Positions 1-19,455 of a stretch of DNA of 64,000 nucleotides are shown here, one piece after another; the first letter of the stretch is position 1, and each line of letters starts with the position of its first letter. The notes under the pieces were generated by a model. It saw only the letters and a list, made by a program, of their open reading frames with translations, did not search any database and had not been told where the DNA came from. The DNA comes from an uncultured Acidobacteriota bacterium (GTDB lineage: Bacteria; Acidobacteriota; Thermoanaerobaculia; Multivoradales; SZUA-115), in contig CAWDVR010000002.1 in assembly GCA_963805975.1 (NCBI GenBank), positions 1-64,000 of the forward strand, read 5' to 3'. The translations under genes and the position numbers were made by a program.

Positions 1-146
1 ACTCTCAACAACTGGCGTTCGGAAGGTACCGGCCCGACTTTTCATAAGCTCGGCCGCCGCACCTCTACACGCGCGCCGACCTCGACAGTTGGGTGGCGTC
101 GTGCCGGCGCCGGAGCACCAGCAGCACCGAGTGCAGGCGGGGCTGA
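1..146 (+). CDS. 3' part of an excisionase/AlpA-like HTH (HTH_17-type) DNA-binding protein, with an apparent frameshift near 62
   Basis: Frame 1 reads TLNNWRSEGTGPTFHKLGRR. After a one-base shift it continues LYTRADLDSWVASCRRRSTS...TGA (144-146), the typical wHTH excisionase pattern. The start lies outside the window. Confidence 0.6.
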
Positions 147-660
147 CGAGAGGGAAGCCCGCATACTGGCAGCCGCACGCCACCGAAGCGGTGAGACTGT
201 GAGGCAAACTGCCGGAAGGGCTCTCGGCTCCGACAGGTCGGCGAAGCTCGGCTTCCTTCCTTCGATCAAGCCCTTCCACTCGGTGCTCGATGGGTTGAAG
301 GAGGACCCGGCGCCGCTGAAGATCCGCGGCGCCGGTGAGTCTGGCAGGAGGGCCATCCTCACTTCCTCGAAACGCGTTACTCCAGGACGCTGGAAGAGAA
401 GGCACCGGACCACAAAGGGCGCCGGGAACCTCTCCGAGCTAGTGAGCCTCCTGGGGGTCCCGAGTTCCACCTGGCAAGCGGCCCGTGAGCTTGCGACCCG
501 GGGAGTTTTCGTGAAAGCGAAAACACAGCTCGGTGTAGAAGATGCCGTAACTGATGATGAGGAAAGAGGATGGGGGCTGCGCGATGCTGAGCACCACCGC
601 GACAGCGTCCGTCGGGTTAATGCTGGCCAACTCGCTGTCGCGGAGAACCAAGATGCACTA

Positions 661-667
661 GTTAGGC
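661..667 (+). other. Left recombination site (GTTAGGC core) of the cassette array; attI-like or secondary site
   Basis: GTTAGGCGTCTGGGTCA (661-677) is the near-perfect reverse complement of TGACCAGACGCCTAAC (1511-1526), the R'' end of the first cassette. No attC hairpin precedes it. Confidence 0.65.
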
Positions 668-698
668 GTCTGGGTCATCCATATCGGTAACCAAGGCG

Positions 699-860
699 AT
701 GACGAAGAAGGCAGGAGAACTGCTCCGCCAAGCCCTCGACTTCAGCGAGGCGGATCGAGCCGAGCTGGCTACGTACTCCTTTGAGGCTGAAAGACCCCTT
801 TCCGTTCCCCCGGACTTGCCACACCCTCGCCACGATTCTGGGCGATGCTCCGGAACATGA
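699..860 (+). pseudogene. Remnant of a putative addiction-module antitoxin component (TIGR02574-like N-terminus)
   Basis: MTKKAGELLRQALDFSEADRAELA resembles the family N-terminus; the rest of the ORF shows no similarity. Confidence 0.3.
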
Positions 861-1525
861 AGCTCTTTCTGGGGTTCGCCGCGCTCTTCGCGCTCATCCT
901 ATTCTTCACGCTCCATTGGAGCTCGGAGGAGCGGCTTGGCACCCACACAGTGGACAAGCCTCGGAGGCCGTCATTCGCGGTTAGAGTGGGTCAAGGCCCC
1001 CCTCGACCGGCCGCTCCTTGGGCTCTTCCCCGAAAAGTGGCTCACGAAATGGACCCAAGTCCCGGCGAGCTGAGCTTCGATCATTCGAGCCCTGGCGCCA
1101 GCGGAAGTGTCGGCCCGTCTCACGCCTCGAGTTGCACGCGGAAGGCTGGCATCTCCTCCTCGAACTCGACCGCGATGGCCGCGTCACTCCCGAGACAGCC
1201 CTCGTGCTCCCGATGAACCATGCGGGGCGACGCCGGGCGCTTCATTGCCGTCCGTCGCGACAGGCTCGGTGCCGATCTCCGTGCCACCCCTGCCGACGTC
1301 CCCGGCGCGTTCGACGGTGCGCCTTCCGCTTTCAGCTCTCCGCTGTCGAGGTCGCCGCGACGGGAGAAGCCATCGATTGGCCGGTGGCGCCGATGACCGT
1401 CACCGGGAACTTCACGGCGCTGCCGGCAGTGAGCACCGGCGGCGAGCGCCGTCCCCGTCGGGATCCGCCGGAACCGGGATTTGTCGCTCCAGCAGACCTC
1501 AGACCCTTCGTGACCAGACGCCTAA
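857..1525 (+). pseudogene. Cassette 1 ORF: secreted/membrane-anchored hypothetical protein split by frameshift(s)
   Basis: Hydrophobic N-terminus MKLFLGFAALFALILFF (ORF 845-1216). Protein-like sequence continues in ORF 1018-1653 (RLELHAEGWHLLLELD...FRFQLSAVEV) up to the attC. Confidence 0.35.
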
Positions 1526-1596
1526 CCCCCTCGTTGCAGCGGACACCACCGGGCATTCACCCGGGCGGTGCCGCTGAAACTCATACACCGTTAGAT
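1520..1596 (+). other. Integron attC site 1 (R' box interrupted by the IS)
   Basis: R'' GCCTAAC (1520-1526), inner arms TTGCAGCGG/CCGCTGAA, R' GTTAG (1590-1594) followed by AT from the IS. Confidence 0.85.
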
Positions 1597-1739
1597 CCTA
1601 TGCGTGGTCCGGGCGGTAGGTGGATCGGAAGGAGCACGGGTCGTCCCGAGTAAGCTTCCTTTGAGACCGAGCAAAGGGAGGAGCTGAGCTCTCAGACGAC
1701 CCGTGGTAAGGGGTATAGCGCAGAAGGGCCCCTCGGACG

Positions 1740-2829
1740 GTGTATCTGGCTTTCGAGCTGGGCAACACGGAGTGGAAGCTGGCGTTCACGGTGGGGCTGG
1801 GGCAGAAGCCTCGAGAGCGGACGATTCCGGCTGGTGAGGTTGGACGGCTGGCGGAGGATCGAGCGGGCGAAGCAGCGGTTTGGCCTGGCCAGTTCGGCCC
1901 GAGTGGTGAGCTGTTACGAGGCGGGGCGAGACGGGTTCTGGTTGCATCGGTTCCTGGGCGAGGTGGGGGTGGAGAGCCTGATCGTGGATTCCTCGAGCAT
2001 CGAAGTGCAGCGTCGAGGTCGGCGAGTGAAGACCGACCGACTCGATGCACGCAAGCTGGTGACGATGCTGATCCGCTACGACGGGGGTGAGCGCAAGGTG
2101 TGGAGCGTAGTGCGGGTGCCGGCATTGGAGGAAGAAGAGAATCGGCAGCTTCACAGGGAGCTGGGAGAGCTGAAACGCGAGCGGACGCGCCTGACGAACC
2201 GGATCAAGGGCTTACTCGTGGGCCAGGGGATACGGATCGAGCTGAAGAGGGACTTCGTCGAGCGTCTTGGAGCGGCGCAGATGTGGGATAGCAGCCCTGT
2301 GCCGGCGGCGCTGCGCTGCCGGCTACTGCGGGAGTGGGAGCGCGTGGAGCTGATCAACCGACAGATTCGGGAGCTGGAAGACGATCGCGAGGAGCTGGTG
2401 CGGGAGTGGGACAGCCCGGAGGTCGAGAAGGTGCGCAGGCTGATGCAGCTACGCGGGATCGGGATCAACTTCTCCTGGCTTCTGGTCATGGAGTTCTTCG
2501 GGTGGCGACGGTTCCGCAACCGGCGTCAGGTGGGGTCTCTCGCGGGCCTGGTGCCGACGCCGTACCAGAGCGGCGCCAGCAGCAGGGAGGCAGGCATCAG
2601 CAAGGCAGGCAACGTGTGGGTGCGAGCGGTGGCCATTGAGATGGCCTGGGCCTGGTTGCGATTCCAGCCCCGCAGTGAGCTGGCAAGGTGGTACCGAGAG
2701 CGCTACGCTCAGGGCGGCAGTCGGATGCGACGGATCGGGATCGTCGCAGTGGCTCGCAAACTCTTGGTGGACCTCTGGCGGTACCTGGACTGGGGCGTGA
2801 TCCCAGCCGGCGCTGCCCTGAAGGCGTAG
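1740..2829 (+). CDS. IS110-family DEDD transposase/recombinase (frameshift near 1857; true start probably near 1685)
   Basis: YLAFELG, SCYEAGRDG and KTDRLDA RuvC-like motifs; C-terminal GLVPTPYQSG...ISKAGN. The two ORFs (1740-2090, 1834-2829) join if one base is restored. Confidence 0.9.
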
Positions 2830-2858
2830 CAGAGTCGGAGTATTGATGAGAGCTGACG

Positions 2859-3036
2859 CTGGTGGAGGTGCCCGTTGTGCCGCCGGGTCTTCGAGTGAGG
2901 ACCGAACGTTAGATGGGGCCACCCCGAGAGGGCTTCACCAGTTCGCCGAAGTCGAATGCAGGATTAGGTGCTCGGCCGAAATGAGCCGACACGGATAGAA
3001 GGTTGCTCAGGCGCAGTGACGCCTGACCCTCGGCGA
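2859..3036 (+). ncRNA. Predicted bridge/seek RNA of the IS (target-binding loop plus donor-binding loop)
   Basis: Stems CTGGTGGAG/CTTCACCAG, GGTCTTC/GAGGACC, TCGCCGA/TCGGCGA and GTG-C-TCGGC/GCCGA-CAC. The loops carry TGCCGCC and AACGTTAG (target) and AGGATT and ATAGAAG (donor). Confidence 0.75.
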
Positions 3037-3069
3037 GGCCCACAGCGACGGCTTGGAGTTGAAAACGAA

Positions 3070-3103
3070 AGCGGGGATCAGTCCGGATCCGGAGATCCCC
3101 GCT
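3070..3103 (+). terminator. GC-rich hairpin in the IS right end
   Basis: AGCGGGGATC...GATCCCCGCT 10-bp inverted repeat; no clear U-tract. Confidence 0.35.
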
Positions 3104-3184
3104 CGAACCGAGAAGCTTGACGGGAACGGCCTACATAGAAGGCGCGCCTCGGAAGGACTTCGGAGAAGCGTCAGGAGATCAAGA

Positions 3185-3849
3185 ATGAAGGATCTCTCCA
3201 TTGATTTCGGCCTTCTGATTGCGTACTTCATCCCGGGTCTCTTAGGGCTTCGAGCGCTCGCCTATCTTCCACCCAGGCCGCTTGACTCGGTGTTGGCGGC
3301 CTCAGGAACAGAATCCGCTACTGGCATTCTCCTCCAAATCGCCTTTTCTCTGCTGCTCGGCATGGTTATCAGCATCCTCCGCGCCACGCTTCTCGACAGA
3401 ACGTTTGGGCTAAGTATGCGACGTCTGCCGTTCATCCCTGACAAACCTCCGTACGCGGCTGTCAAGCGCGCCGAACCAAAGTATGAGCGTATGCGCGACG
3501 AGGGAATCCTCAACGCCTCCGCGAAGCCCAGCTGCAGGAAAAGAGGCCTTACCAGTTCTATGGAAACTCCCTCCTTTCCTCGGCCCTGCTGGTAGTCTGC
3601 CGGTCATTCACCCACACTGACCGTGCACTTGATGGGGAGCTGCTTTGGCTTCCTCTCCTGATGATCGGCTGGGGGTCACTCTACGTAGGGGCTCGCACTT
3701 CCCACGCCCGCTACATGAATGCCGTGGAGAAAGCTGAAGGCTCTACCACCCTGAGAGCAAGCCTAACGCGGCCAGTGGTGCGGCCCTCGCCTACGGCGTC
3801 GCCGCTCACCGGCAGCAACGTTAGACGCCGGAGGAAATGCGCAACGTGA
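3185..3849 (+). CDS. Cassette 2 membrane protein (about 4 TM), with an apparent frameshift near 3517
   Basis: MKDLSIDFGLLIAYFIPG... joins, after a one-base shift, to REAQLQEKRPYQFYGNSLL...LLMIGWGSLYVG. It lies between two attC sites; the 3' end is uncertain because the frame runs through the attC. Confidence 0.6.
3761..3826 (+). other. Integron attC site 2
   Basis: R'' GCCTAAC (3761-3767), imperfect palindrome GCCAGTGGTGCGGC/GCCGCTCACCGGC, R' GTTAGAC (3820-3826). Confidence 0.85.
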
Positions 3850-3962
3850 ATGAGGATATCAGCTTCGACCTCTTCCTCAGCCACAGCGCGAAGGACAAGA
3901 CGGTGGTGGGGCCGCTGGCGGAGAGATTGCGGGCCAATAGCCAGAGGAGTTTCCTGCGATGA
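3837..3962 (+). pseudogene. 41-aa TIR-domain (TIR_2-type) N-terminal stub
   Basis: RBS GGAGG, then MRNVNEDISFDLFLSHSAKDKTVVGPLAERLR (TIR box 1). Its TGA overlaps the ATG of the NACHT gene (ATGA). Confidence 0.7.
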
Positions 3963-6900
3963 AACCCACGCCGAACCCGCTCAGTCAATATCATGTGTTC
4001 CTTGCCTCGCCCGGTGACGTGGGGACGGAACGGCAGTACGTGCGAAGGTTCTTCGATGAATACAACCGCCACACCGCCCATATTTGGCGTGCCCGGTTTG
4101 AGGTTGTGGACTGGGAGAACTACGCGACCATCGGCGTTGGCCGGCCCCAGGAACTGATCACGCAGCAAACTTTGGAGAAGTACCGGAAGTCGTTGGCGTT
4201 GGTCATCGGAATCATGGGCCAGCGGTTCGGCTCGCCGTCCGGCAAGGCGGAGTCGGGGACCGAGGAAGAGTTCAACTGGGCGATGGAGAGCCACAAGTCC
4301 TCGGGCTTCCCGGAGATCAAATGGTTCTTCCGCAAAGTGGACACGTTGGAGTTGCCGGCCGATCCCGACGAGGCGGACGCGGCGCTGGACCAATGGAAGA
4401 AGGTCCGCGCCTTCCGCAAGCGGATGCAGGACCTGAACAACCCGGTCTTCTACGCGGAGTATCCGAGTTCGGCCGGATTTGCCGAGGTCTTCGAGCGCGA
4501 CCTCAACCAATGGCTGGCCGATCCGGCGCGCCCGTGGGCTGCGCAATTGGCGGCCCACGTTGCGGCCACGGGCGGCTCGGCCGCAGTCGCACTGCCCGCC
4601 GAGTTCGATGCGGAACGCTACCGGGCCGCGGTGCTCAAGCAGTTCGACAAGCTCAACTTCGAGATGCTCGACACGACCGGCGCGTTCTACAGCGCTGTCC
4701 GGCTGTGGAGTGTCTTTGTCCCGCAGTCGGTGCGGGAATGCCATCAATACAACCCGCGGCTGCTGGAAATCCCCAAGGAACACCAGCGGCGGCTATTGGA
4801 CGCTGGCGAGATCACCACGAAGGAACTCGAGGAAGCCGAGCAGCAGGCGGATCGGCTGCGGCAGGAGTACTTCCACCAGCCGCTCCGTCCCGTGCTGGAT
4901 GTCGTGGATGAGGCCCTTCGTACATCGCCGGCAGGGGCCGGGCGGAAGCTGGTCATCTTGGGCGACCCTGGCTCCGGCAAGTCGTCGCTGATCCGCTATC
5001 TGGCCCTGCGCTGGGCGGGAATTGCCGAACCGACAGTTCGGGACACGCAGCCAATTCCGCTGGTGGTCGAGCCGGGCACCTACGCCCGCTGGCAGTGCGA
5101 CGGCCGCAAGGATTTCATCCGCTACCTAGAGGAAGGCCCGGTCTGGCACGGATGGCAGCGCGGCCTGCTCAGCCGGCTGCTTGAACAGCCCGGGCGGGTC
5201 GTTTTGCTGCTCGATGGGTTGGACGAAGTCTTTGACGTGCCGACGCGCGAGACGGTGATCAACGACATTCAGCGGTTCGCCAGTCAGTTTGCCAATGTAC
5301 CGGTCGTCCTCACGTCGCGCGTGGTGGGCTATCAAGCGCAGCGGTTGCGCGAGTCCGAGTTCCGGCACTTCATGTTGCAGGATTTGGACTCCACACAAAT
5401 CATCGACTTCGTGAATCGCTGGCATGGGGTGACTTTCGACGACCCGGCGCAGGCGGCTCCGAAGCGGGACCGCTTGCAGAAGGCGATCCACGAATCCAAG
5501 TCCATTGCCATGCTGGCCGGCAACCCGCTCCTCCTGACCATGATGGCCGTTCTGAACCGCAACCAGGAATTGCCGCGGGACCGGGCCGACCTGTACGCCC
5601 AGGCGTCGCGCGTGCTTCTGCACCAGTGGGACACGGAGCGCGCGCTGGAAGACTTTCCGGGGATGAGCACCGAAATCGGCCTGCGGGAGAAGACCGACAT
5701 CCTCCGCCGCCTCGCCGCACACATGCAGGCCGGTCCCGGCGGGCTAAAAGGCAACATGATTGATGGCTCGACGCTGGCCGACTTGATCGAGGAGTACCTG
5801 CAGAACGAGCTGCATTTCGCCCAAGCCCGCGCCGCGGCCCGCGCCGTTGTCGATCAGTTGCGGCAACGCAATTTCATTCTCTGCTTCGTCGGCGCGGACA
5901 GTTACGCCTTTGTGCACCGTACGTTCCTGGAGTACTTCTGCGCCGCCGATTTCGTGCATCAGTTCAACGTTGCCAAGACGCTCGACATCGACGGTCTGAT
6001 CGCCCTGTTCGACCAACACTGCCGCGACGACGAATGGCGCGAAGTCCTGCGGCTGATCTGCGGACAGATCGACGAAACTTTCGTGGGCCGGATCGTCGAA
6101 CGATTGGCCACGCAATCGCCCTTGGAACAATGGAAGGGCACGACGCCCCTTCCCGAAGTGCTTACCGCTGTAGCCTGCCTGACCGAAGCTAGAAACGTGA
6201 TCAAGATAGAGGCCGCTTGTCGGTCCGTAATATGGCGAGTGGCCTCTGCTACGACGCGGCCAGGTACGGTCGAATATACAAGGCGTTTCTTTCAAGAGGT
6301 AATTGACTTAGCTGCCGAGATCCCCTCATGCAGCCAGATATTCGCGAGTCTCGAGCCGCAGCTCTTATCGCTCAGATCGGCGTTCAAGGACGAAATTAAC
6401 TATCGGACTCCGTTCTACCCCAGACTACTCGCCAGTGTTGGTGCCAATCGTCGAACGATAGAGCGATTCGCTGGCGACCCCAAAGAAGGAATTCGTGAAG
6501 GCGCCCTTATAGCGTTGGCGGAGAAGTGGCCGGACCAGACCACCCGCGACCTGCTCGCCCAGCGCGCCGTCCAGGATGACAACTACCAACCCCGCAGCGC
6601 CGCGCTGCAGGCGTTGGCGGAGAAGTGGCCGGACCAGACCACCCGCGACCTGCTCGCCCAGCGCGCCGTCCAGGATGACAACTACCAACCCCGCAGCGCC
6701 GCGCTGCAGGCGTTGGCGGAGAAGTGGCCGGACCAGACCACCCGCGACCTGCTCGCCCAGCGCGCCGTCCAGGATGACAACTACCAACCCCGCAGCGCCG
6801 CGCTGCAGGCGTTGGCGGAGAAGTGGCCGGACCAGACCACCTGCGACCTGCTCGCCCAGCGCGCCGTCCAGGATGACAACTACCAACCCCGCAGCGCCGC

Positions 6901-8344
6901 GCTGCAGGCGTTGGCGAAGAAGTGGCCGGACCAGACCACCCGCGACCTGCTCGCCCAGCGTGCGGTCCAGGATGACAACGAGTACACCCGCAGCGCCGCG
7001 CTGCAGGCGTTGGCGAAGAAGTGGCCGGACCAGACCACCCGCGACCTGCTCGCCCAGCGCGCCGTCGAGGATGACAACGCGGGCCCCCGCCGCGACGCGC
7101 TGCAGGCATTGGCGGCGAAGTGGCCGGACCAGACCACCCGCGACCTGCTCGCCCAGCGTGCCGTCCAGGATGACAACGAGGACACCCGCAGCGCCGCGCT
7201 GCAGGCGTTGGCGGAGAAGTGGCCGGACCAGACCACCCGCGACCTGCTCGTCCAGCGCGCCGTCCAGGATGACAACGAGGACACCCGCAGCGCCGCGCTG
7301 CAGGCGTTGGCGGAGAAGTGGCCGGACCAGACCACCTGCGACCTGCTCGCCCAGCGCGCCGTCCAGGATGACAACTACCAACCCCGCAGCGCCGCGCTGC
7401 AGGCGTTGGCGAAGAAGTGGCCGGACCAGACCACCCGCGACCTGCTCGCCCAGCGTGCCGTCCAGGATGACGACTACCAACCCCGCAGCGCCGCGCTGCA
7501 GGCGTTGGCGAAGAAGTGGCCGGACCAGACCACCCGCGACCTGCTCGCCCAGCGCGCCGTCGAGGATGACAACGCGGGCCCCCGCAGCGCCGCGCTGCAG
7601 GCATTGGCGGCGAAGTGGCCGGACCAGACCACCCGCGACCTGCTCGCCCAGCGTGCCGTCCAGGATGACGACGCGGACAACCGCCGCGACGCGCTGCAGG
7701 CGTTGGCGGAGAAGTGGCCGGACCAGACCACCCGCGACCTGCTCGTCCAGCGCGCCGTCCAGGATGACAACGAGGACACCCGCAGCGCCGCGCTGCAGGC
7801 GTTGGCGGAGAAGTGGCCGGACCAGACCACCCGCGACCTGCTCGCCCAGCGCGCCGTCCAGGATGACAACGAGGACACCCGCAGCGCCGCGCTACAGGCG
7901 TTGGTGGCGAAGTGGCCGGACCAGACCACCCGCGACCTGCTCGCCGAGCACGCCGTCCAGGATGACAACGCGGACAACCGCCGCGCCGCGCTGCAGGCGT
8001 TGGCGGAGAAGTGGCCGGACCAGATCACCCGCGGCCTGCTCGCCCAGCGCGCCGTTGAAGCACCGGATATGTCGGAACGCGGTGCCGCCTGTTCCGCCCT
8101 GGGCAAGATGCACTCCGAGTTCGGCCGCATCCTGCCGACGCGAGACTTCGACGGCGTCGGGCCGTATCTCGATCCCCTCGAACCGATTCCACGCCAGCAC
8201 ATCGAGAAGGCAGCAGCGAAGGTTGGTATCCGTCCCGACGAGATCGACGCCCACGTCGCCGCGCTGTCGGCTTACTTGGGGTGGGAGGTCATGAGCGGGG
8301 CGAAGACCGATCGACCAAAGCCTGGCCACAAGCGGCGCAATTGA
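3959..8344 (+). CDS. NLR-like protein: DUF4062/TIR-like N-terminal domain + NACHT NTPase + HEAT-like repeats
   Basis: VFLASPGDV...GQRFGSPSG...SGTEEEF (DUF4062-like); Walker A GDPGSGKS; Walker B LLLDGLDE; GNPLLL; FVHRTFLEYF; C-terminal 33-aa helical repeats. Confidence 0.9.
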   Translation: MKPTPNPLSQYHVFLASPGDVGTERQYVRRFFDEYNRHTAHIWRARFEVVDWENYATIGVGRPQELITQQTLEKYRKSLALVIGIMGQRFGSPSGKAESGTEEEFNWAMESHKSSGFPEIKWFFRKVDTLELPADPDEADAALDQWKKVRAFRKRMQDLNNPVFYAEYPSSAGFAEVFERDLNQWLADPARPWAAQLAAHVAATGGSAAVALPAEFDAERYRAAVLKQFDKLNFEMLDTTGAFYSAVRLWSVFVPQSVRECHQYNPRLLEIPKEHQRRLLDAGEITTKELEEAEQQADRLRQEYFHQPLRPVLDVVDEALRTSPAGAGRKLVILGDPGSGKSSLIRYLALRWAGIAEPTVRDTQPIPLVVEPGTYARWQCDGRKDFIRYLEEGPVWHGWQRGLLSRLLEQPGRVVLLLDGLDEVFDVPTRETVINDIQRFASQFANVPVVLTSRVVGYQAQRLRESEFRHFMLQDLDSTQIIDFVNRWHGVTFDDPAQAAPKRDRLQKAIHESKSIAMLAGNPLLLTMMAVLNRNQELPRDRADLYAQASRVLLHQWDTERALEDFPGMSTEIGLREKTDILRRLAAHMQAGPGGLKGNMIDGSTLADLIEEYLQNELHFAQARAAARAVVDQLRQRNFILCFVGADSYAFVHRTFLEYFCAADFVHQFNVAKTLDIDGLIALFDQHCRDDEWREVLRLICGQIDETFVGRIVERLATQSPLEQWKGTTPLPEVLTAVACLTEARNVIKIEAACRSVIWRVASATTRPGTVEYTRRFFQEVIDLAAEIPSCSQIFASLEPQLLSLRSAFKDEINYRTPFYPRLLASVGANRRTIERFAGDPKEGIREGALIALAEKWPDQTTRDLLAQRAVQDDNYQPRSAALQALAEKWPDQTTRDLLAQRAVQDDNYQPRSAALQALAEKWPDQTTRDLLAQRAVQDDNYQPRSAALQALAEKWPDQTTCDLLAQRAVQDDNYQPRSAALQALAKKWPDQTTRDLLAQRAVQDDNEYTRSAALQALAKKWPDQTTRDLLAQRAVEDDNAGPRRDALQALAAKWPDQTTRDLLAQRAVQDDNEDTRSAALQALAEKWPDQTTRDLLVQRAVQDDNEDTRSAALQALAEKWPDQTTCDLLAQRAVQDDNYQPRSAALQALAKKWPDQTTRDLLAQRAVQDDDYQPRSAALQALAKKWPDQTTRDLLAQRAVEDDNAGPRSAALQALAAKWPDQTTRDLLAQRAVQDDDADNRRDALQALAEKWPDQTTRDLLVQRAVQDDNEDTRSAALQALAEKWPDQTTRDLLAQRAVQDDNEDTRSAALQALVAKWPDQTTRDLLAEHAVQDDNADNRRAALQALAEKWPDQITRGLLAQRAVEAPDMSERGAACSALGKMHSEFGRILPTRDFDGVGPYLDPLEPIPRQHIEKAAAKVGIRPDEIDAHVAALSAYLGWEVMSGAKTDRPKPGHKRRN
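6503..8056 (+). repeat. 99-bp coding tandem repeat, 15 full units plus 1 partial
   Basis: Unit ALQALAEKWPDQTTRDLLAQRAVQDDNxxxRSA; units start every 99 bp from 6503, with unit 16 at 7988. Confidence 0.97.
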
Positions 8345-8515
8345 TGGGCACCATGTGGTCGACGAGAGGCATGACTCTGGCGGGGGACGCCGGGATGATG
8401 GAGGCCAGGATCTTGAAGCACGACTTGGCGCACGAACCCTCGGTGCAGGAGTTCGCGCGCGGCGCCCGCAAGACACACCTCTTGCGGGCGATCGGTTAGT
8501 CGTGCGCACATCGGC

Positions 8516-8579
8516 GTTTAACAACCGGTTGCAGCGGACGGTCCGCTGCGCGGCCCGCCGCGGAACCGGAGCGTTCGGC
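8516..8579 (+). other. Integron attC site 3 (right end of the array)
   Basis: R'' GTTTAAC (8516-8522), arms CCGGTTGCAGCGG/CCGCGGAACCGG, R' GTTCGGC (8573-8579). CGGCGTTTAAC is complementary, with 1 mismatch, to GTTAGACGCCG at the start of cassette 3. Confidence 0.8.
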
Positions 8580-8852
8580 CCTCCTATCGCCTTACCCGCC
8601 GCCTTAGGTACGCTGTCGAGTGGCATGCCGGGCTGAGGGCCGCCTCAAGAGCCTTCCAAAGCGCATGCTGAGCGCATGCCGAGCAATTCGGAAGCAGCGA
8701 GGCTCCCGGAGTCAATTCTCCGGAAGGCTCAGATTAAGCGAGACTTAGGACGACCTGACCTCAGTCTCGGCAGCTTGACCGAGTATGTGAGGATTTCCGG
8801 GAGGACCCGAAACGCAGCAGATCGACCGCGGAGCAGGTATTCGTGGGCGCTC

Positions 8853-9572
8853 TTAGGGAGTTTCGATCCGGAAGGAGCGGGCCATGGTGGTGGGCCCGTC
8901 GAGCACGGTCCAGAGGTATTGGACGCCCGGCCGGAGCTTCGCTCTCTCTTCCTCGGGGAACTGCATCTCGCCCCCTGCGGTCGGCGGGCTGGTCCAGCGG
9001 TGGGAGCCGTTGGCCTCGAACAGCAGCACTCGCTGCGGCGCGCCGTCTCCGGCCGGGAACACGAACTTCTCGGGCGGCGCGGCCAGGGTGCCCGCCGGCG
9101 AGAAGTCGCCGTCCTCGGCCTGGGTGCCGCGGAGGTTGTCTTCCTGCGCCGGAGCCGGCATGACCTCGGGGCGGGCCGTCCACCACAGGCCGAGGCCCAC
9201 CGCGCCGGCCGCCAGCGTGGCCGCGAGCGCCAGGACCGGCGGCTCCAGGAAGCGGCGCCGCCGAGACTCGGCCCTGGGAGCCCGCCAGGGCAGGGCCGCC
9301 GCCGCCGGGGGCTGGGTCGCTCGGGGCTGGGCCACCGGAGCCTCCACCGCCTGGCGGAAGCGCTCCCACTCGGCCTCGAGCTTGGCGGCCGGCACCGGCT
9401 GGGGCCGGTCGAACGCCTCCAGGCGCAGCAGCTCTTCAGAGCACGCGGCGCAGGTCGCGGCATGGGCCAGCACTCCCTCGGCCTCGGCGCCTCGCGGACC
9501 CCGGGAGGCGCGGTACAGCTCTTCTGCCGAGGGATGCGGCCCGGACGGGCGCCGGGGCGTGGGATCGGTCAC
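8853..9572 (-). CDS. Membrane-anchored anti-sigma factor (zinc-binding HxxxCxxC)
   Basis: GTG start overlapping the sigma stop; HPSAEEL...HAATCAACSEEL motif; TM segment VLALAATLAAGAVGLGLWW; extracytoplasmic C-terminal domain. Confidence 0.8.
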   Translation of the reverse strand: MTDPTPRRPSGPHPSAEELYRASRGPRGAEAEGVLAHAATCAACSEELLRLEAFDRPQPVPAAKLEAEWERFRQAVEAPVAQPRATQPPAAAALPWRAPRAESRRRRFLEPPVLALAATLAAGAVGLGLWWTARPEVMPAPAQEDNLRGTQAEDGDFSPAGTLAAPPEKFVFPAGDGAPQRVLLFEANGSHRWTSPPTAGGEMQFPEEERAKLRPGVQYLWTVLDGPTTMARSFRIETP

Positions 9573-10099
9573 GGCTCTCCTTCCACGAGCGCGCGCAGGC
9601 GCCGGCGGGCGTTCCAGATCTGGACCTTGACGGTGGGCAGAGACAGCGACAGGCGGCCGGCGATCTCCTTGTAGGAGAGGCCCTGCTGCACGTGGAGCAG
9701 CAGGCAGGTGCGCATGCCGTTGGGCAGCCGGGTGAGGGCCGCGACGGTGCGGGCCAGGTCGTGGCGGCTCTCCGCCTCCACGTCGGCCGTGACCTGCAGG
9801 TCGGGCAACGCCTCGCTCACCGGCTCCGTCTCTGCCATACGACCTTTCCGGCGCCACTCGTCGCGGGCGGCGTTGCGCGCAATCGAGTAGACCCAGGCAT
9901 CGAAGCTGCCCTCGGCCCGGAACTCCTCCTTCGCCTTGTAGACGTTCACCAGGACGGTTTGACTTAGATCGTCGGCGTCGGCCGCCTGGAAGCCGCTGGC
10001 GAGGAAGTAACTGCGCAGGCGGGGAAAGAAGCGCTCGAAGACGGCGCGGAACTCGTCTCCGCCGCCGGCCTCCGGCGCCGCGTGGCTCGCCTCTGGCAT
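9569..10099 (-). CDS. ECF RNA polymerase sigma-70 factor
   Basis: Region 2 DADDLSQTV...FDAWVYSIARN; region 4 GLSYKEIAGRLSLSLPTVKVQIWNARRRL. Confidence 0.92.
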   Translation of the reverse strand: MPEASHAAPEAGGGDEFRAVFERFFPRLRSYFLASGFQAADADDLSQTVLVNVYKAKEEFRAEGSFDAWVYSIARNAARDEWRRKGRMAETEPVSEALPDLQVTADVEAESRHDLARTVAALTRLPNGMRTCLLLHVQQGLSYKEIAGRLSLSLPTVKVQIWNARRRLRALVEGEP

Positions 10100-10160
10100 G
10101 GACGGCATCTCAGCGCAAGATGCGGAGGCTGTCAACGAGGAGCTGGAAGGCCCGCCACCC

Positions 10161-13100
10161 TCACCGCCCGTCGCCGTTGAGCTCGAAAGCGGCCCAGTGG
10201 AAGGGGTGGCGGAGCGCGGCGTCGACGCCCTCGCCGCGCGCGAACGAGCGCTGGGCCTCGGCCAGGGCCTCGTCTTTGGGCCGCCCGCGGGCGAGCGCCG
10301 CGTAGAAGCGCGCCATCAGCTCCGCGGTCGAGCGGTCCGACACCGGCCACAGCGCGGCGATCACCGAGCGCGCGCCGGCGTACTGGAAGGCGCGCGTGAG
10401 GCCGATCAGCCCCTCGCCCGCCGCGTCCTTGCCGAGCGCCGTGTCGCAGGCGGACAGCGTCACCAGGTCGGCGTCGAGCCGGAGCTGTTCGAAGATCTCC
10501 CAGGCCTGGAGCAGGCCGTTCTCTTCGTCCCCCGGTCGTGGGATCGACAGCGCCAGGGCCGAGTCGAGCGGTATCCGGGGGTCGAGCAGCGCATGGCAGG
10601 CGAAGTGGAGGTAGCGGGGCGAGGCCGCGAGCCGCTTGACCGCCTTCTCGGTGGCGTCGGCTCCGAGGAAGGCCTGGCTCTCGCCGCGGTAGAGGCGCGC
10701 CAGGGCCTCGACCTCGTCGCGGGTGCCGGCGATCGCCGCCAGGCCACGCTGATACCGCCGGGTGGGCCCCTCGTCCGCGCCGCTGGCGAGCACGGACCCG
10801 GTCTCGCCGGCAGAGTCCCCGGGTGCCGACGCCGCACCATAGAGCGGGTCGCCGAAGGCCACCAGCCGGCCGTCCGAACGCGGCGCCGAAGCCCTGCCGC
10901 GCCGCAGCTCGGCATAGAGCGTGGCCGAGAGCACGAGATGGATCGGCCGGTCTTCGACCAGGAAGCGAGGCGGGTCGCCGGCCCTCGCCAGCGCCGCGAA
11001 CGGCAGGGCGTGGAGGGGGCCGTCCGGCGAGACGAGAAGCCGCCGCGCCGGGCCGAAGGCCGCTTCGGCCGGCGCCAGGAGGAGGTCGTAGAGCCGAGCC
11101 GCCTGCGCCAGCACTGCCGCGGTGGCGCCGGCGTCCCGACGACCGTCGAGGATCAGGCCGCGAAACACCGCCACCTCCTGCGCCGCCCGGTCGCGGCCGA
11201 TGGCCAGCCTGAAGAGGCCCACCTCCGGGGACTCCGGTCGCACCACGAACAGCAGCCCCTCCTCCGCCGCGAGGCTGAACGACAGCCAGGCCGTGCCCGG
11301 ATCGAGCACGGCGCGGATCTCGGCCAGCGACAGGATGCGCGGGTTGGTGAGCGAGTCGTAGCGCGGCGAGGCGTCGGCGATCTCCTGCGCCAGGAGGCCC
11401 CGTTCGGCACGGAGCTGGGCCAGCGCTTCCAGGCTCGTTCCCGGCACCGCGGCGGAGAGCGCGGCCTGTGCGCGCTCGTACTCGCGCTCCAGGCGGCGCC
11501 GCCGCTCGCGCAGCTCGGCGGGGAGATCGGCGGCGAAAGCCAGCTCTCGGCTCGCCAGCTCGATGAGCAGCGAGCGCCCCCGCGAGCGCTCCAAGGTACG
11601 GAGGGCCTGCTCGCGGTCCCCTCGCCGGGCTTGCAGGTCCATCAACAGGTGGTAGAAGGGGAGGTAGGAGTCGAGGTAGCTGGTCCGCGCCTCGTCCGCC
11701 CCGCCGAGCCTGCCGATCTGCTGCTCGAAGGTCTCGATCGCCGTCGTGAGCGCCGCCTCGGCCTCCCGATCGCGACCCAGCCGCTCGTAGAGCTGGCCGA
11801 GCGAGGCCCAGGACTGGGCTTGGCGGGTGGTGCCGGGCGCCACCCGGCGCAGCAGCGCCAGCCCCTCTTCGAGGCAGCGCTCGGCCTTGGCCCAGCGCTC
11901 GGCTCGGAACGAGGCGTGGCCGAGGTTCTGCAACGCGATCGCCTCGCGCAGCGTGCCGCGCCCGAGCTGGCGGCTGAGCGCCAGGGCGCGCTCCAGGTGG
12001 CGATCGGCGGTGGCATGTTCCCCCCGCTTCATCGCGGTCATGCCGAGCCCCTGGAGGCTGCCCGCCAGGTAGTGGCTGCCCGGGGCGCGCCGCTCCTGGA
12101 TGGCCAGCGCTTCCTGCCCCCAGCGCTCGGCCTCGTCGAGCCGGTCGGCCTTCATGGCCACGAAGCACATCTGGCTCAGGGTGCTGGCCTCGCCGAGGGA
12201 CCCCGGGACCACGCGGCGCTCCAGGTCGAGCGACCGCTGAAAGAAGCGCAACGCACCCTCGAGATCGCCCCGGTCGCGGGCGTTGCCGGCCAGGCGCTCG
12301 AAGACCGCCGCCACCGCGGTGGTCTCGGGGAGCGGCGAGTCGTAGACCGCGAGCGCCTGGCGCAGCGCCTCGTCACTGGCCGCGAGGTCGCCGCGGTCGC
12401 TCGCCGCCTGGGAGACGTTCACCAGAGTGCGCGCCAGATCCTCGTGCTTCGGGCTCACTCGCTGGAGCATGTCGGCCGAGCGCCGGAAGTAGGCCTCGGC
12501 CTCGGCGGGCTCTCCCCGCCGCTTGGCGAGCGCGCCGAGGTTGTTGAGCGGCTGCGACTCGTAGAGGCTCTCCGGGGCCAGGCGGTGGGTCAGCGCCAGG
12601 GCCTCTTCGAACCGCGCCTGGGCATCTGCCAGGCGCTCGCGAAAGAGCGCCACCGTACCCAGGTTGTTGAGCGTCCAGGCCCTCTCCAGGCTCACCGGCG
12701 CCTGCCGGTCCCAAAGCGCCAGCGCTCCGCCCAGGTGTTGCTCGGCGAGGTCGAGGTTGCCGCGGATGCGCTCGAGCCGGCCCAAGGCGTGGAGGGAGGC
12801 TGCCTCGGAGAGGCTCCCGGGGGCCGCCTGCCGGCGCCGGGACAGTGCTTCCTCGAGCGCTTGGGCGGCGCGCGCCAGATCCGGCTGCGCCCCATAGGCC
12901 AGGCCCTGCTCCTGGCGGACCAGGGCTTCGAGGAGCGGTGCGCCGAGCGGCCTGGCCGCGGCCAGCGCCGCCTCGAAACCGCTCTGTGCCGCGGGCCAGT
13001 CGCGTGCCTCGGCAGCCCGCCGCCCGCGTGCCAGGGCCTCCCACACCGGCCGATCCGCGGCACCCGTTGGGGCAGGGAGCACGCTGAGCTTCCACTCGCC

Positions 13101-13472
13101 TGGCGGCATCCGCACCGTCCGCCGCCGCCTGTCGCGCCACACTTCCAGCTCGACCGGGCCGCGCGGCGCCTGCTCCACCTCGAGCAGGGCGAGCTCGAGG
13201 CAGGAGGAGAGGGTGCCCTGCGCACCGTCCGGGTTGGCGGGCGGCGCCGGGCCGCGCGAGAACGAGAGCAGCCGGTCGCCGGCCTGGAGGCCCGCCCTGG
13301 CACCGGCGCCGTCCGCGGCAACGTGCTCCACCACCACCGCGGCGTCCGGCGGCGCGGGAGCGCAGCCGCCGACTGCCAAGGCGCTTGCCAAGGCGAGAAG
13401 GCAAGAAAAGGGCAGCGGGGCGGGGCGGGATGTGGCTCTCAACTCCGAGCTAGCGCCGGCCGAGCGAGTCAT
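10161..13472 (-). CDS. Lipoprotein: PDZ-like + TPR array + CHAT (caspase-like) protease
   Basis: Lipobox-like LAVGGC; GARAGLQAGDRLLS (PDZ); multiple TPRs; CHAT motifs PDGPLHALPFAAL, LHFACH, LSACDT, LWPVSD, HPFHWAAF. Confidence 0.9.
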   Translation of the reverse strand: MTRSAGASSELRATSRPAPLPFSCLLALASALAVGGCAPAPPDAAVVVEHVAADGAGARAGLQAGDRLLSFSRGPAPPANPDGAQGTLSSCLELALLEVEQAPRGPVELEVWRDRRRRTVRMPPGEWKLSVLPAPTGAADRPVWEALARGRRAAEARDWPAAQSGFEAALAAARPLGAPLLEALVRQEQGLAYGAQPDLARAAQALEEALSRRRQAAPGSLSEAASLHALGRLERIRGNLDLAEQHLGGALALWDRQAPVSLERAWTLNNLGTVALFRERLADAQARFEEALALTHRLAPESLYESQPLNNLGALAKRRGEPAEAEAYFRRSADMLQRVSPKHEDLARTLVNVSQAASDRGDLAASDEALRQALAVYDSPLPETTAVAAVFERLAGNARDRGDLEGALRFFQRSLDLERRVVPGSLGEASTLSQMCFVAMKADRLDEAERWGQEALAIQERRAPGSHYLAGSLQGLGMTAMKRGEHATADRHLERALALSRQLGRGTLREAIALQNLGHASFRAERWAKAERCLEEGLALLRRVAPGTTRQAQSWASLGQLYERLGRDREAEAALTTAIETFEQQIGRLGGADEARTSYLDSYLPFYHLLMDLQARRGDREQALRTLERSRGRSLLIELASRELAFAADLPAELRERRRRLEREYERAQAALSAAVPGTSLEALAQLRAERGLLAQEIADASPRYDSLTNPRILSLAEIRAVLDPGTAWLSFSLAAEEGLLFVVRPESPEVGLFRLAIGRDRAAQEVAVFRGLILDGRRDAGATAAVLAQAARLYDLLLAPAEAAFGPARRLLVSPDGPLHALPFAALARAGDPPRFLVEDRPIHLVLSATLYAELRRGRASAPRSDGRLVAFGDPLYGAASAPGDSAGETGSVLASGADEGPTRRYQRGLAAIAGTRDEVEALARLYRGESQAFLGADATEKAVKRLAASPRYLHFACHALLDPRIPLDSALALSIPRPGDEENGLLQAWEIFEQLRLDADLVTLSACDTALGKDAAGEGLIGLTRAFQYAGARSVIAALWPVSDRSTAELMARFYAALARGRPKDEALAEAQRSFARGEGVDAALRHPFHWAAFELNGDGR

Positions 13473-16409: not shown

Positions 16410-16442
16410 TTTGTTGCAAGTACCAACAAACAGTGCTACGAT
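16410..16442 (+). promoter_or_regulatory. marR promoter with overlapping palindromic operator
   Basis: TTTGTTG-N7-CAACAAA (16410-16430); -35 TTGCAA (16414-16419), 17 bp spacer, TG-extended -10 TACGAT (16437-16442). Confidence 0.7.
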
Positions 16443-16449
16443 GCAGCTC

Positions 16450-16959
16450 ATGAGCAGCGTGGCGGCCCTCCGTTCAGTAGTTGAAAACCCCGAGCTGGCG
16501 CAGGACACCGAGGAGCTGTACGACGCATTGGAGGATCTGCTGCGCGTGTATCAGTTCCGCGACCGCGACCGCATCTGCTGCTTCGACATCTCGGTCTCTC
16601 AATGCTACGCCTTGGAAGGGCTCGTGCGGCGGGGGGACATGACTCTCAACGACCTCGCGGCCTATCTCTATCTCGACAAGAGCACGGCGAGCCGGGTAGT
16701 AGACGCCTTGGAGCGTAAGGGCTATGTGACCCGCTCCCCTCATCCCGAGGACGGCCGGGCCTTGCTGCTCGAAGCGACCCGCGCTGGTAGCACACTCGAA
16801 GGTCGAATCCGAGAGTCGATCCTCGCCGAGGAGCGAGGCCTCGTCGCCGATTTCGCACCAGACGTTCGCAAGGCCATGACGCAGCTCATCCGCCGTCTCG
16901 CCCGCGCCGCCCAGGCGCAGGTCGAAGCCGGCGGCGGAAGCTGCTGCAGAGTTTCGTAA
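16450..16959 (+). CDS. Cys-rich MarR-family regulator, probably arsenic-responsive
   Basis: wHTH LDKSTASRVVDALERKGYV...DGR; ICC...QC motif and C-terminal SCC; directly upstream of arsM. Confidence 0.88.
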   Translation: MSSVAALRSVVENPELAQDTEELYDALEDLLRVYQFRDRDRICCFDISVSQCYALEGLVRRGDMTLNDLAAYLYLDKSTASRVVDALERKGYVTRSPHPEDGRALLLEATRAGSTLEGRIRESILAEERGLVADFAPDVRKAMTQLIRRLARAAQAQVEAGGGSCCRVS

Positions 16960-17005
16960 CGCCGCGCCTAGGCGGGAGCCACGGCGCGTTTTTCTTGCAC
17001 CTACA

Positions 17006-17020
17006 GTTGCAAGTGACAAC
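17006..17020. promoter_or_regulatory. Second copy of the MarR operator, upstream of arsM
   Basis: GTTGCAAGTGACAAC versus GTTGCAAGTACCAAC at 16413-16427 (GTTG-N7-CAAC). Confidence 0.65.
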
Positions 17021-17036
17021 CGAAAGAGGAGACATC

Positions 17037-17918
17037 ATGAACAGTCAATCCCCGAGCACAGATCAGCCACTCGACCCAGCCGCCTTGCGCGAGGTCGTCC
17101 AGGCGAAGTACGGCGAGGCAGCGCGCAGCGTGAAGCAGGGAGCCCCCGCTTCCTGCGGCTGCGGGAGCTGCGGCTGCGGCCCTGACCCGATCACCTCAGA
17201 TCTCTACGACGGGCAGCAGACGGCGAGTCTTCCCACCGAGGCGGTGCTCGCCTCCCTGGGCTGCGGCAACCCCACGGCCCTGGCCGAGCTCGCGCCGGGC
17301 GAGGTAGTCCTGGATCTGGGTTCCGGCGGCGGCATCGACGTGCTGCTCTCCGCCAGGCGCGTCGGTCCCGCCGGCAAGGCCTACGGGCTGGACATGACGG
17401 ACGACATGCTCGACCTGGCGCGCGAGAACCAGCGTCGCGCCGGGGTGGAGAACGTCGAGTTTCTGAAGGGCGAGATCGAGGCGATTCCACTGCCCGAGGG
17501 CGCAGTAGACGTGGTCATCTCGAACTGTGTGATCAACCTCTCGGCCGACAAGCGGCAGGTGCTTGCCGAGGCCTTCCGCGTGCTCCGGCCCGGCGGCCGC
17601 TTCGCCGTCTCAGACATCGTGGTCCGCGGGGAGATGCCGGCGGCCCTGCGCCGCAACGTCGAGCTATGGATCGGCTGCGTCGCCGGCGCCCTCGAGGAGC
17701 CGGAGTATCGGCGGCTCCTCGCCGAGGTGGGCTTCGAGGAGGTCGAGGTCGAGCCGACACGGATCTATCGCGCCGCCGATGCCCGCGCCTTCCTGGAGGA
17801 GGCCGCCATTGACCCCACAGGCTTGGACGAGATCGACGGCAAGGTGATGAGCGCCTTCGTCCGGGCTCGAAAGCCGACCCTGGCTCGCATCACTTCCATG
17901 GCGGAGGGGACTATGTAG
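17037..17918 (+). CDS. arsM: Arsenite methyltransferase
   Basis: [35 protein letters not shown] and WIGCVAGA motifs; RBS GAGGAG. Confidence 0.93.
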
Positions 17919-17973
17919 CGGCGCAGGCTACGAGGCGGGGTGAGATTCGCGGGAGGAGAGACCACAAACAGTC

Positions 17974-18008
17974 TTGCAATATACATTGCGTCAAACTATA
18001 TTGACGCA
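17974..18008 (+). promoter_or_regulatory. Promoter and palindromic ArsR-type operator
   Basis: -35 TTGCAA (17974-17979), 17 bp spacer, -10 TATATT (17997-18002); perfect inverted repeat TGCGTCAA-N6-TTGACGCA (17987-18008). Confidence 0.75.
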
Positions 18009-18010
18009 TC

Positions 18011-18787
18011 ATGACGACCGCGACTCTCCCCGCTCCATCGTCCTTTCTGAAGCTTCTGGCCCACGAACTTCGCTGGAAGCTCGTCGCCCATCTCGCCCGG
18101 AGTGACCGCCGAGTCCAAGAGCTGGTCGAGTGCGTCGACGAGCCGGCGAACCTGGTTTCCTACCACCTGCGCAGGCTGCGGGATCAGGCGCTCGTCCGCG
18201 AGCGCCGCAGTGCCGCGGACGGGCGAGATGTCTACTACAGCCTGGACCTGGATCGCCTCCGAGGTCTCTACTTTCGGACCGGCGAGACTCTGCATCCCGG
18301 CCTTGCCCCGAATCCGTCCGGGACGGCAGAGGCCTCGCGGGCAGGGGGAGAGCGGCCTACCCGGGTCCTCTTTCTTTGCACCCACAACAGCGCCCGGTCG
18401 CAGATGGCTGAAGCCATCCTCCGGCATCTCGCCGGGGATCGAGTGGAGGTAGCAAGCGCCGGCACGGTAGCTACCCGGATCCACCCACTCGCCGTCGCCG
18501 TGATGACCGAGGACGGTCTCGCCTTCCAGGGCCAGCGCTCGAAGCACGTGGACGAGCTCACGGGCCAACAGTTCGACTACGTGATCACGGTCTGCGACAA
18601 CGCCCGAGAGGCGTGTCCGGTCTTTCCTGGGGCGCCGGAGCACATCCACTGGAGCATCGCCGATCCTTCTGCCGTCGAAGGGAGCGAGGCAGTCAAGTTG
18701 CGGGCCTTCCGGAACGCGGCCGAGGAGCTCACGACGCGCATTCGGTATCTCGTCGTGGCCATCGACCGCCGGCGCGCAGGTTCATGA
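18011..18787 (+). CDS. ArsR-family HTH fused to LMW-PTP-type arsenate reductase (ArsR-ArsC)
   Basis: N-terminal [11 protein letters not shown]...VSYHLRRL; C-terminal [21 protein letters not shown]...ACP and HWSIADP. Confidence 0.9.
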
Positions 18788-19455
18788 GCCTTGCGCTTCG
18801 CTGGCGGCGAGCCGCGGCCGAAACCATCGGGACATTCGCGCTGGTGACCGGAGGCTGCGGCGCGATTGTGGTGAACCACGCTACGGGTGTCTTGGGCCAC
18901 GGGGGAATTGCCGCAAGCTTTGGCTTGGTCATCTTGGTAATGGTCGCTTCGCTCGGACACATCTCTGGAGCGCATTTCAACCCGGCCGTCACTCTGGCAT
19001 TTGCCCTGACTCGACACTTCCCCTGGCGGGATGTGCCTCTCTACTGGGCAGGTCAGCTTACGGGCGCGGTCGCCGGAGCCTTGGTCCTTCGTCTGCTCTT
19101 TGGAGCTACGACAGGCCTAGGGAGCACGATTCCCTCCGGCACGAGTGCCCAAGCGCTCGGCGTCGAGATCCTGCTGACTTCCGTGCTCATGTTGGTCATT
19201 ACGGCCGTTGCCACGGACACCAAAGCGGCCGGCTTCATGGCAGCGCTCGCGATCGGAGGGACCGTCGCGCTAGATGCCCTTTGGGGTGGACCCGTGAGCG
19301 GAGCGTCGATGAACCCGGCGCGTTCCTTCGGGCCGGCGCTCGTTGGGGGGGTCTGGCGTGCACACTGGATCTACTGGCTCGGTCCGACACTCGGTGCAGT
19401 CCTTGGTGCGTCCGTCTACCAGCGCCTCCGATCGCAGCCAGCGAACGAAGACTGA
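18784..19455 (+). CDS. MIP/aquaporin-family channel, likely an arsenite conduit
   Basis: Two NPA boxes ([19 protein letters not shown]); start overlaps the ArsR-ArsC stop. Confidence 0.9.

Follow-up and report, generated by a model that had tools for sequence, protein, structure and literature searches.

We analysed a 64,000-nucleotide stretch (the window) of contig CAWDVR010000002.1 from an uncultured Acidobacteriota bacterium, in which an integron gene cassette near one contig end carries one long gene, encoding a 1461-residue protein (P0001) with an N-terminal DUF4062-like domain, a central NACHT NTPase and C-terminal HEAT repeats. In our judgement, P0001 is probably an NLR-like NADase that acts in abortive anti-phage defence and has a swappable sensor. 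According to this model, a helical segment and the HEAT repeats would bind a phage protein, the NACHT module would exchange nucleotide and oligomerise, as in other NACHT and STAND proteins, and the clustered N-terminal domains would hydrolyse NAD+ through E104 to ADP-ribose and nicotinamide, by analogy with PsAvs2, Vulcan, Swarozyc and TEP1, whereupon the infected cell would arrest. The variation among relatives suggests that specificity may be reset by exchange of a segment of ~110–130 residues between conserved flanks, and also by gain, loss and reshuffling of 99-bp repeats. The gene, mostly free-standing elsewhere, would have entered a cassette downstream of a TIR fragment and then have passed from one array to another. 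We advance only tentatively the broader reading of a cassette family with a reprogrammable NLR-NADase, in which segments are exchanged across phyla, an alphaRep-like HEAT surface is reshuffled and the whole attC is replaced as a unit.

The original prediction, made from the DNA letters, placed a 4.75-kb cassette between the sites attC2 and attC3, and this was upheld: the crossover points of the two sites give the ends of a 4,753-bp cassette exactly, at 3821–8573 on the forward strand, and a sister cassette supports them independently. The R' box of attC2 (3761..3826, +) lies at 3820–3826, which sets the 5' crossover of the cassette at G/TT, 3820/3821; attC3 (8516..8579, +) is the last site of the array and is imperfect. 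Both end in RYYYAAC...GTT and can fold into a hairpin on the bottom strand (z −2.2 for attC2, −1.9 to −2.1 for attC3), and both align with seven other attC-like sites of the same genome; the hairpin signal of each site over shuffles, taken alone, is modest. The defects of attC3 are an R' box reading GTTCGGC, only 4 of 7 R-box pairs formed in place, and one L-box mismatch. Its R'' is complementary to its present R' at 4 of 7 positions and to the cassette's own 5' core at 6 of 7, as is expected of a cassette that was once circular.

The sister cassette (L061), which is metagenomic, is 3,338 bp long, encodes a 994-residue allele and lies in another array with other neighbours, which goes on with further attC sites at 7201, 7617 and 8137 and other cassettes. 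The two cassettes have the same 5' end (84% identity over 140 bases), ~89% DNA identity through the effector and NACHT regions, and trailers that are 94% identical over 180 bases. The 77 bases that end at the first base of R'' are identical at 76 positions; beyond this point the attC sites (8516–8579 in the window, 3303–3359 in L061) are unrelated, which looks like replacement of the entire attC as one unit. Between the copies, the 5' core and R'' change in step (GTTAGAC with GTTTAAC in the window; GTTAGGC with GCCTAAC in L061), giving complementarity of 6/7 and 7/7, respectively, with a compensatory change, and such joint change is as a circular intermediate predicts. Judged from these comparisons, the unit is a real cassette, with independent support from L061.

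The same observations, namely the shared 5' end and the trailers matching at 76/77 bases as far as R'' in cassettes with different neighbours, and the co-variation of core and R'', stand against an explanation that we consider highly improbable, namely that the gene moved by some other route and landed between two pre-existing attC sites. What can be said for it is that a cassette-like 5' junction was seen in at least five of the 67 family loci having the gene 5' end (L012, L013, L061, L066 and L077, with L012 and L077 sharing upstream sequence) and both ends in at least one, L061 alone; that the TIR fragment and trailer suggest entry of the gene into an older cassette; and that the cassette is more than twice the ~2 kb cited earlier as the largest (PMC4889954). 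These counts are lower bounds because the attC detectors are weak. The covariance model, built from nine sites of this genome, is circular in its matches to those sites, failed to detect the L012 site and gave the first attC of L061 a weak score, and the final heuristic was noisy, with 16 matches against 10 in shuffles (33 loci). By the same sequence comparison most relatives of the gene lie outside cassettes, and for this reason the gene looks captured into its cassette behind the TIR fragment.

That fragment (41 residues, 3837..3962, +) opens the cassette, and its stop overlaps the start codon of the NLR gene; it matches Pfam TIR_2 (E 0.014) and PADLOC ThsB (E 1e-4), and related TIR remnants lie upstream of the gene in nine loci (L009, L010, L013, L017, L061, L065, L075, L083 and L091). 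The gene for P0001 (3959..8344, +) is the sole long open reading frame in the cassette and has no internal stop; apart from it and the TIR fragment, no partner gene is found inside the cassette. The 3' trailer (8345..8515, +) has its first ~50 bp in common with non-cassette relatives, and it is the whole of it that is 94% identical to L061.

The candidate effector is the N-terminal domain (3983..4558, +; residues ~9–200), which likely belongs to the NIR family, the new name of DUF4062. Several lines of sequence comparison point this way. Relatives P0040, P0140, P0148, P0185 and P0268 pass the Pfam DUF4062 cut-off, and the Atlas neighbours of the domain are DUF4062 clusters at 0.92–0.93, with DUF4062 carried by 14–42% of their members; Atlas clusters of 166–219 residues also resemble the domain. 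A stand-alone copy, 64% identical in a 222-residue frame, occurs at L055 (G056:C3:3443612-3444067). The predicted model is a five-stranded alpha/beta fold with a predicted local distance difference test score (pLDDT) of 82, its top Foldseek match is the L7 TIR (E 2e-4), and it matches TIR-STING with Z 9.1 and a root-mean-square deviation of 3.5 over 135 aligned residues, on a par with non-TIR alpha/beta folds; a PDB sequence search with the domain gave nothing significant.

Conservation singles out one glutamate. The homologue search gave 2,073 of 7,993 scored candidates at E 0.001, and conservation was counted in the 120 homologues listed, 98 of which have the N-terminal domain. E104 (4268–4270) is kept in all 98 and in 128 of 129 more distant representatives, the next residue being F or Y, and the pocket residues around it are near-invariant. 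Its context fits the S-x-T-x-x-E-aromatic pattern and the 'acidic-SYT / E-Y' region of DUF4062, as compared by description. E102 is poorly kept (84 of the 98 listed, 101 of 130 distant representatives), so that the original idea of conserved SGTEEE glutamates is narrowed to one of three. By conservation, E104 matches the catalytic Glu of NIR proteins and may be its counterpart. Hydrolysis of NAD+ by DUF4062 through one Glu is reported in three 2026 preprints (10.64898/2026.09.04.749371; 10.64898/2026.05.01.722283; 10.64898/2026.06.25.731849); in the first, the domain, renamed NIR, depletes NAD+ via one Glu in Vesta, PsAvs2 and the NIR-HEAT protein Vulcan, and its presence in further NLR-like proteins, which have repeats of several kinds, is mentioned. 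By this analogy, the nucleotide-degrading effector proposed earlier is borne out in kind.

The NACHT NTPase and the helical and winged-helix region that follows it occupy 4946..6103 (+; residues 330–715). Pfam NACHT matches residues 330–489 with 46.6 bits against a cut-off of 26.7; Walker A (4961–4984, +; residues 335–342) and Walker B (5204–5227, +; residues 416–423) are intact, and G335, G340, K341, D419, D422, E423 and R454 are kept in 120 of the 120 listed homologues. In the model of residues 212–1047 (pLDDT 88) the best matches are NLRC4, NOD2 and NLRP3, with E down to 1e-10. P0001 thus has the features of bacterial NACHT proteins, namely Walker A and B, a sensor Arg, an N-terminal effector and a C-terminal repeat sensor. 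Pfam HEAT_2 matches with 208.9 bits, and a C-terminal cap (8129..8245, +; residues 1391–1429) matches wHTH-HSP90_Na-assoc with 28.8 bits against a cut-off of 23. The reading frame, Pfam and motifs agree on the 1461-residue DUF4062-like/NACHT/HEAT protein with intact Walker motifs that had been described at first, and its sensor-switch-effector layout is what the Pfam domains and structure models predict.

Between the NACHT region and the repeats lies a hypervariable helical segment, the candidate specificity module (6119..6508, +; residues ~721–850). Identity to the 30 closest relatives is 76–95% up to residue 720, falls to 13–22% over 751–840 and recovers in the repeats; DNA similarity to every related locus ends at gene position ~2,120–2,200, and the G+C content at third codon positions drops to 0.61 in the segment. 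The segment is predicted to be helical and continuous with the solenoid (pLDDT ~85–95), and a faint shared pattern indicates that its versions are homologous yet deeply diverged. For the window and L061 proteins the core identity is 92.5% and the segment identity 27.6%; for L061 and the Trichlorobacter protein P0022 the values are 85.7% and 81.9%, and for the window and P0006, 86% and 46%. The segment type of the window is thus also found in other proteins and probably predates the split between the window and L061, which favours replacement over fast point mutation. Among the 84 pairs with core identity of at least 90%, the median segment identity is 0.29, and the 105 segments that could be parsed from 121 proteins (16 were left out of clustering and tree) form 57 clusters at 50%. 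Segment types are scattered over the NACHT core tree, which was built with FastTree only: type A, the largest (17 proteins), requires 11 changes, at least five of them forced by well-supported branches. The specificity of NAIP proteins has been mapped to NACHT-adjacent helical domains, to a disputed extent (PMC5938239), and since many relatives have only one or two repeats, specificity may lie mainly in the segment. The sister cassettes, with the same ends and a different candidate sensing segment and attC, suggest that these receptors likely change target by swapping parts.

The HEAT array (6512..8055, +), a candidate binding surface, consists of 99-bp/33-residue units in 15.6 copies with 92% matches; counted as protein motifs, the repeats number 16. 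Mean pairwise DNA identity is 0.93 over 15 units, above the 80–90% that marks NLRs with high internal conservation. In the 80 proteins that have the C-terminal cap, the repeat count varies between 1 and 16, and two otherwise identical protein pairs differ by exactly 33 or 66 residues, which may be allelic differences or assembly collapse. The window array contains a five-unit block duplication with later changes, a pattern not expected from simple misassembly. Positions 20 and 21 of the repeat are the most variable, with 24 also among the most variable. We placed the repeats in what we take to be the register of the alphaRep consensus, in a mapping made after the variation had been seen. In this register positions 20, 21, 24, 25, 28 and 32 are spaced as the randomised concave-face positions 18, 19, 22, 23, 26 and 30 of alphaRep (PMC3754942). 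In the window array, nonsynonymous (pN) and synonymous (pS) variation at these positions is 0.285 and 0.062, and in the framework 0.022 and 0.064. At the six positions, pN/pS is ~4.6 in the window array and ~0.85 when pooled over nine related arrays, the pool leaving out the 12 of 21 arrays that have fewer than three distinct units. Besides differing in number, the repeats differ most on the predicted binding face. The original prediction included neither this variation nor the hypervariable segment, nor the fact that most of the family lies outside cassettes.

The family is widely and patchily distributed. Listed matches span Acidobacteriota, Planctomycetota, Verrucomicrobiota and several proteobacterial groups, according to record titles and source names, and close loci are 69–93% identical; a 714-residue query gave no full-length match above 47% identity in 60 kin genomes. 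This patchy spread, with close homologues in many phyla and none close in kin genomes, is counted for an immune role. NACHT proteins that carry this NIR subfamily may end in FGE-sulfatase, TPR or HEAT, and the subfamily also occurs on WD40, TPR and PIN-TPR proteins; the same NACHT occurs with other partners, such as a C-terminal PNP in P0090 and NNH2 instead of DUF4062 in P0103, and P0113 combines a TIR fragment with HATPase_c_4 and NNH2. Such module exchange around NIR and NACHT is typical of immune proteins. Viral contigs gave no family locus with this query, which is neutral for either reading. By eye, tRNA-like sequence lies within ~300 bases of the start codon in L028, L062, L072 and L076, hinting at carriage in tRNA-anchored islands.

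A number of results weigh against the anti-phage NADase with a swappable sensor. The DUF4062 match (PF13271, residues 13–108) scores 22.3 bits, E 1.6e-4, just under the cut-off of 24.7, for which reason 'DUF4062-like' is the right wording; in fold searches TIR structures are near the top, tied with unrelated flavodoxin-like folds (Z 8–9.5). The PADLOC search proposed at first returned, besides the ThsB match of the TIR fragment, only partial matches to P0001, namely a weak NTPase match and PDC-S60 over positions 5–169 of 906, short of full length; no Avs profile matched at E 0.001 or 0.01 in PADLOC 2.0, whose 2023 library lacks newer Avs families. Label shuffles scored as low as segment type A in 27 of 500 cases, and the scatter of this type could be that of a retained ancestral type with repeated divergence. 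Repeat counts from short-read assemblies may be collapsed, and the pooled pN/pS of ~0.85, from non-independent pairs, indicates relaxed and not clearly positive selection. No sigma-70-type promoter match was found in positions 1–9000, and the head of the array is separated from the gene by an insertion sequence (IS). Finally, the anti-phage role of P0001 is a prediction from domains, motifs and variation, and the NIR domains of human NWD1, NWD2 and NPHP3 showed no NADase activity (10.64898/2026.09.04.749371).

These inactive eukaryotic domains, together with the signal-making and non-catalytic members found among TIR-like folds, also lend something to an alternative that we rate as unlikely: P0001 may be an NLR-like receptor whose output is a signalling nucleotide or a scaffold, or whose trigger is not a phage but a plasmid, a competitor effector or a guarded host protein. 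For bNACHT25, sensing by way of the host protein DnaJ is reported (PMC12169576), and rapid C-terminal change has been read as escape from phage inhibitors and not as new specificity (Kibby et al., 10.1101/2022.07.19.500537). The bacterial NIR systems considered here are, however, all Glu-dependent, those assayed depleted or hydrolysed NAD+, E104 and the pocket residues are near-invariant, and the cassette holds no partner gene. An NADase output is the reading we prefer.

The picture is more complex for present mobility. The element had been called mobile; this stands historically and is doubtful now, given the lack of a full IntI, the degenerate attC3 and the size. No IntI above the cut-off (TIGR02249) was found in the assembly of this genome (G000), which is 96% complete, and the window array has no intact intI beside it and is, in this assembly, a cluster of attC sites lacking integron integrase (CALIN). 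Another contig has, at C4:12.2–12.4 kb, a 50-residue C-terminal remnant of IntI with 86% identity to its counterpart in kin genome G002, the only one of seven same-family genomes that has a full IntI. A tyrosine recombinase at C4:41.6–42.5 kb was considered as the integrase and rejected because it scored well under the IntI cut-off. According to published work, recombination is poor for long cassettes; in one capture screen, counts fell with size and a 4-kb cassette gave no reads (10.64898/2026.03.17.712381). The cassette is probably not mobile by itself now; lacking an integrase, it is probably stranded in this genome.

It is accordingly a substantial possibility, though one we put below even chances, that in this genome the cassette is a stranded and weakly expressed passenger that cannot be excised now and whose long repeat array arose by neutral slippage. 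The missing IntI with its remnant, the degenerate attC3, the unrecovered 4-kb cassette of the screen and the missing promoter match all point this way, as do the 16 repeats, the highest count among 121 proteins, and the frameshifts or stops in several relatives, some of which may be assembly errors. On the other side, the 4.4-kb frame and all motifs are intact although the assembly shows indels nearby, the framework repeat positions are under purifying selection (pN < pS), the assembly is incomplete with the array at a contig end, and CALIN cassettes may be mobilised in trans (PMC4889954). Such a local fate can be compatible with the NADase receptor as the best explanation for the family. Among sequencing runs, none shared more than 12% of the stretch's words, and there was no RNA run among those listed.

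The rest of the array and its surroundings are as follows. The array is headed by an attI-like site (651..667, +), labelled from its position, with no intact intI adjoining; its 15-mer also precedes arrays at C4:41129 and C6:1373, with a one-base variant after the IntI remnant on C4, and the attI label is provisional, as no such motif was found next to the complete intI in G002. attC1 (1520..1596, +) has a hairpin z of −3.2 and an R'' complementary at 7/7 to the core at 661–667. An IS110-family element (~1595–3138, IS110 profile matches) starts inside the R' box of attC1; its counterpart is at L048 8290–9845 (G000:C4), and the transposase frame of the window copy is shifted near 1850, possibly through assembly error. 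The idea that IS removal restores a perfect match of the attC2 R'' with the core was dropped after comparison of both IS copies. The contig start (window 1–2027) overlaps the reverse of the C6 start (L051, G000:C6:1-7000) at 94.7%, with many indels; beyond the overlap, C6 encodes what read as an excisionase-like helix-turn-helix protein, a MobC-like protein and a phage-type integrase, from which the array may sit in an integrative element.

Small integrase-less arrays occur on G000:C4 (L048 11095–12361, L049 3965–7130, L050 6197–11531). One follows the IntI remnant in the same orientation, and another follows a frameshifted non-IntI tyrosine recombinase and has two TIR cassettes and one DUF2971 cassette, TIR proteins thus being encoded by two of the three cassettes of another array in this genome, a point in favour of the defence reading; a ~130-bp block, promoter and attI-like, lies upstream of each of these two. 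Downstream of the cassette, a 105-bp non-coding stretch (8689–8793) is 86% identical to G000:C1:1491199-1491302. As labelled by reading translations, core-like genes at 8853–13472 encode an extracytoplasmic function sigma factor, an anti-sigma-like protein paired with it and a TPR-CHAT protein, and those at 16411–19455 an arsenic-resistance-like group of methyltransferase, ArsR-ArsC fusion and aquaporin.

Compared with known systems, P0001 resembles PsAvs2 in its N-terminal DUF4062-like domain, a Glu at a similar position (E108 in PsAvs2, the candidate E104 in P0001), its STAND NTPase, its C-terminal helical repeats and its single gene, and differs in having Pfam NACHT and near-identical HEAT repeats instead of TPRs (10.64898/2026.09.04.749371). 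Vulcan, from the same source, joins NIR and HEAT in one protein, as P0001 is predicted to do, and NAD+ depletion is shown for Vulcan; its fusion is direct, whereas P0001 has a full NACHT module between the two. The bNACHT proteins share the effector-NACHT-sensor order, with HEAT sensors listed, and bNACHT01 has a fast-diversifying region C-terminal to NACHT (SNaCT) (10.1101/2022.07.19.500537); unlike them, P0001 has a predicted NIR effector, an internal variable block of ~110–130 residues between conserved flanks, 1–16 repeats in its family, and carriage in integron cassettes. As in HET-E-type NLRs (10.1101/2020.01.06.895854), the repeats are more than 90% identical in DNA, undergo block duplications and change at few positions, but they are HEAT instead of WD40 or TPR, and the signs of positive selection in P0001 are only suggestive. 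Swarozyc, Evangelion and TEP1 (10.64898/2026.05.01.722283; 10.64898/2026.06.25.731849) share with P0001 what is likely a DUF4062 TIR-like core with one conserved Glu; human TEP1 also has DUF4062 next to NACHT, unlike P0001 together with TROVE and WD40 domains, whereas the other two are short proteins of the DUF4062-AUX type that lack NACHT. Like described integron defence cassettes and CALINs (10.1101/2024.07.02.601686; PMC4889954), the window has a predicted defence gene in an attC array within an integrase-less cluster; unlike those streamlined cassettes, its cassette of 4.75 kb exceeds the 4-kb default clustering distance of IntegronFinder. Because the standard finder clusters attC sites within 4 kb, it would overlook large NLR cassettes or break them up.

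NIR-STAND-repeat proteins, NACHT-HEAT proteins and defence cassettes are each already in print, and the NIR-NACHT-HEAT architecture may already be in Fig. 2 of 10.64898/2026.09.04.749371. What appears to be new, on sequence grounds, is that this architecture sits in an oversized cassette in which sensor and attC have been exchanged. No paper on a NACHT protein as an integron cassette was found in a literature search that fell short of most subscription papers; 'NACHT' is absent from the accessible text of 10.1101/2024.07.02.601686, and in the STAND survey PMC13581612 'DUF4062' is absent from the main text and the supplements examined, the latter also having no HEAT, organism or accession match.

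Taken together, our results add a predicted NIR-NACHT-HEAT architecture to a newly defined NADase family. The relatives form a natural allelic series, with cores 85–94% identical, dozens of sensor segments and 1–16 repeats, with which the part that determines the specificity of a bacterial NACHT protein can be sought directly, much as with the mouse NAIP chimeras. The sister cassettes, with identical flanks and unrelated attC sites, bear on cassette genesis, and if the reprogrammable cassette family is real, it would show directly how a cassette acquires its attC or exchanges it for another.

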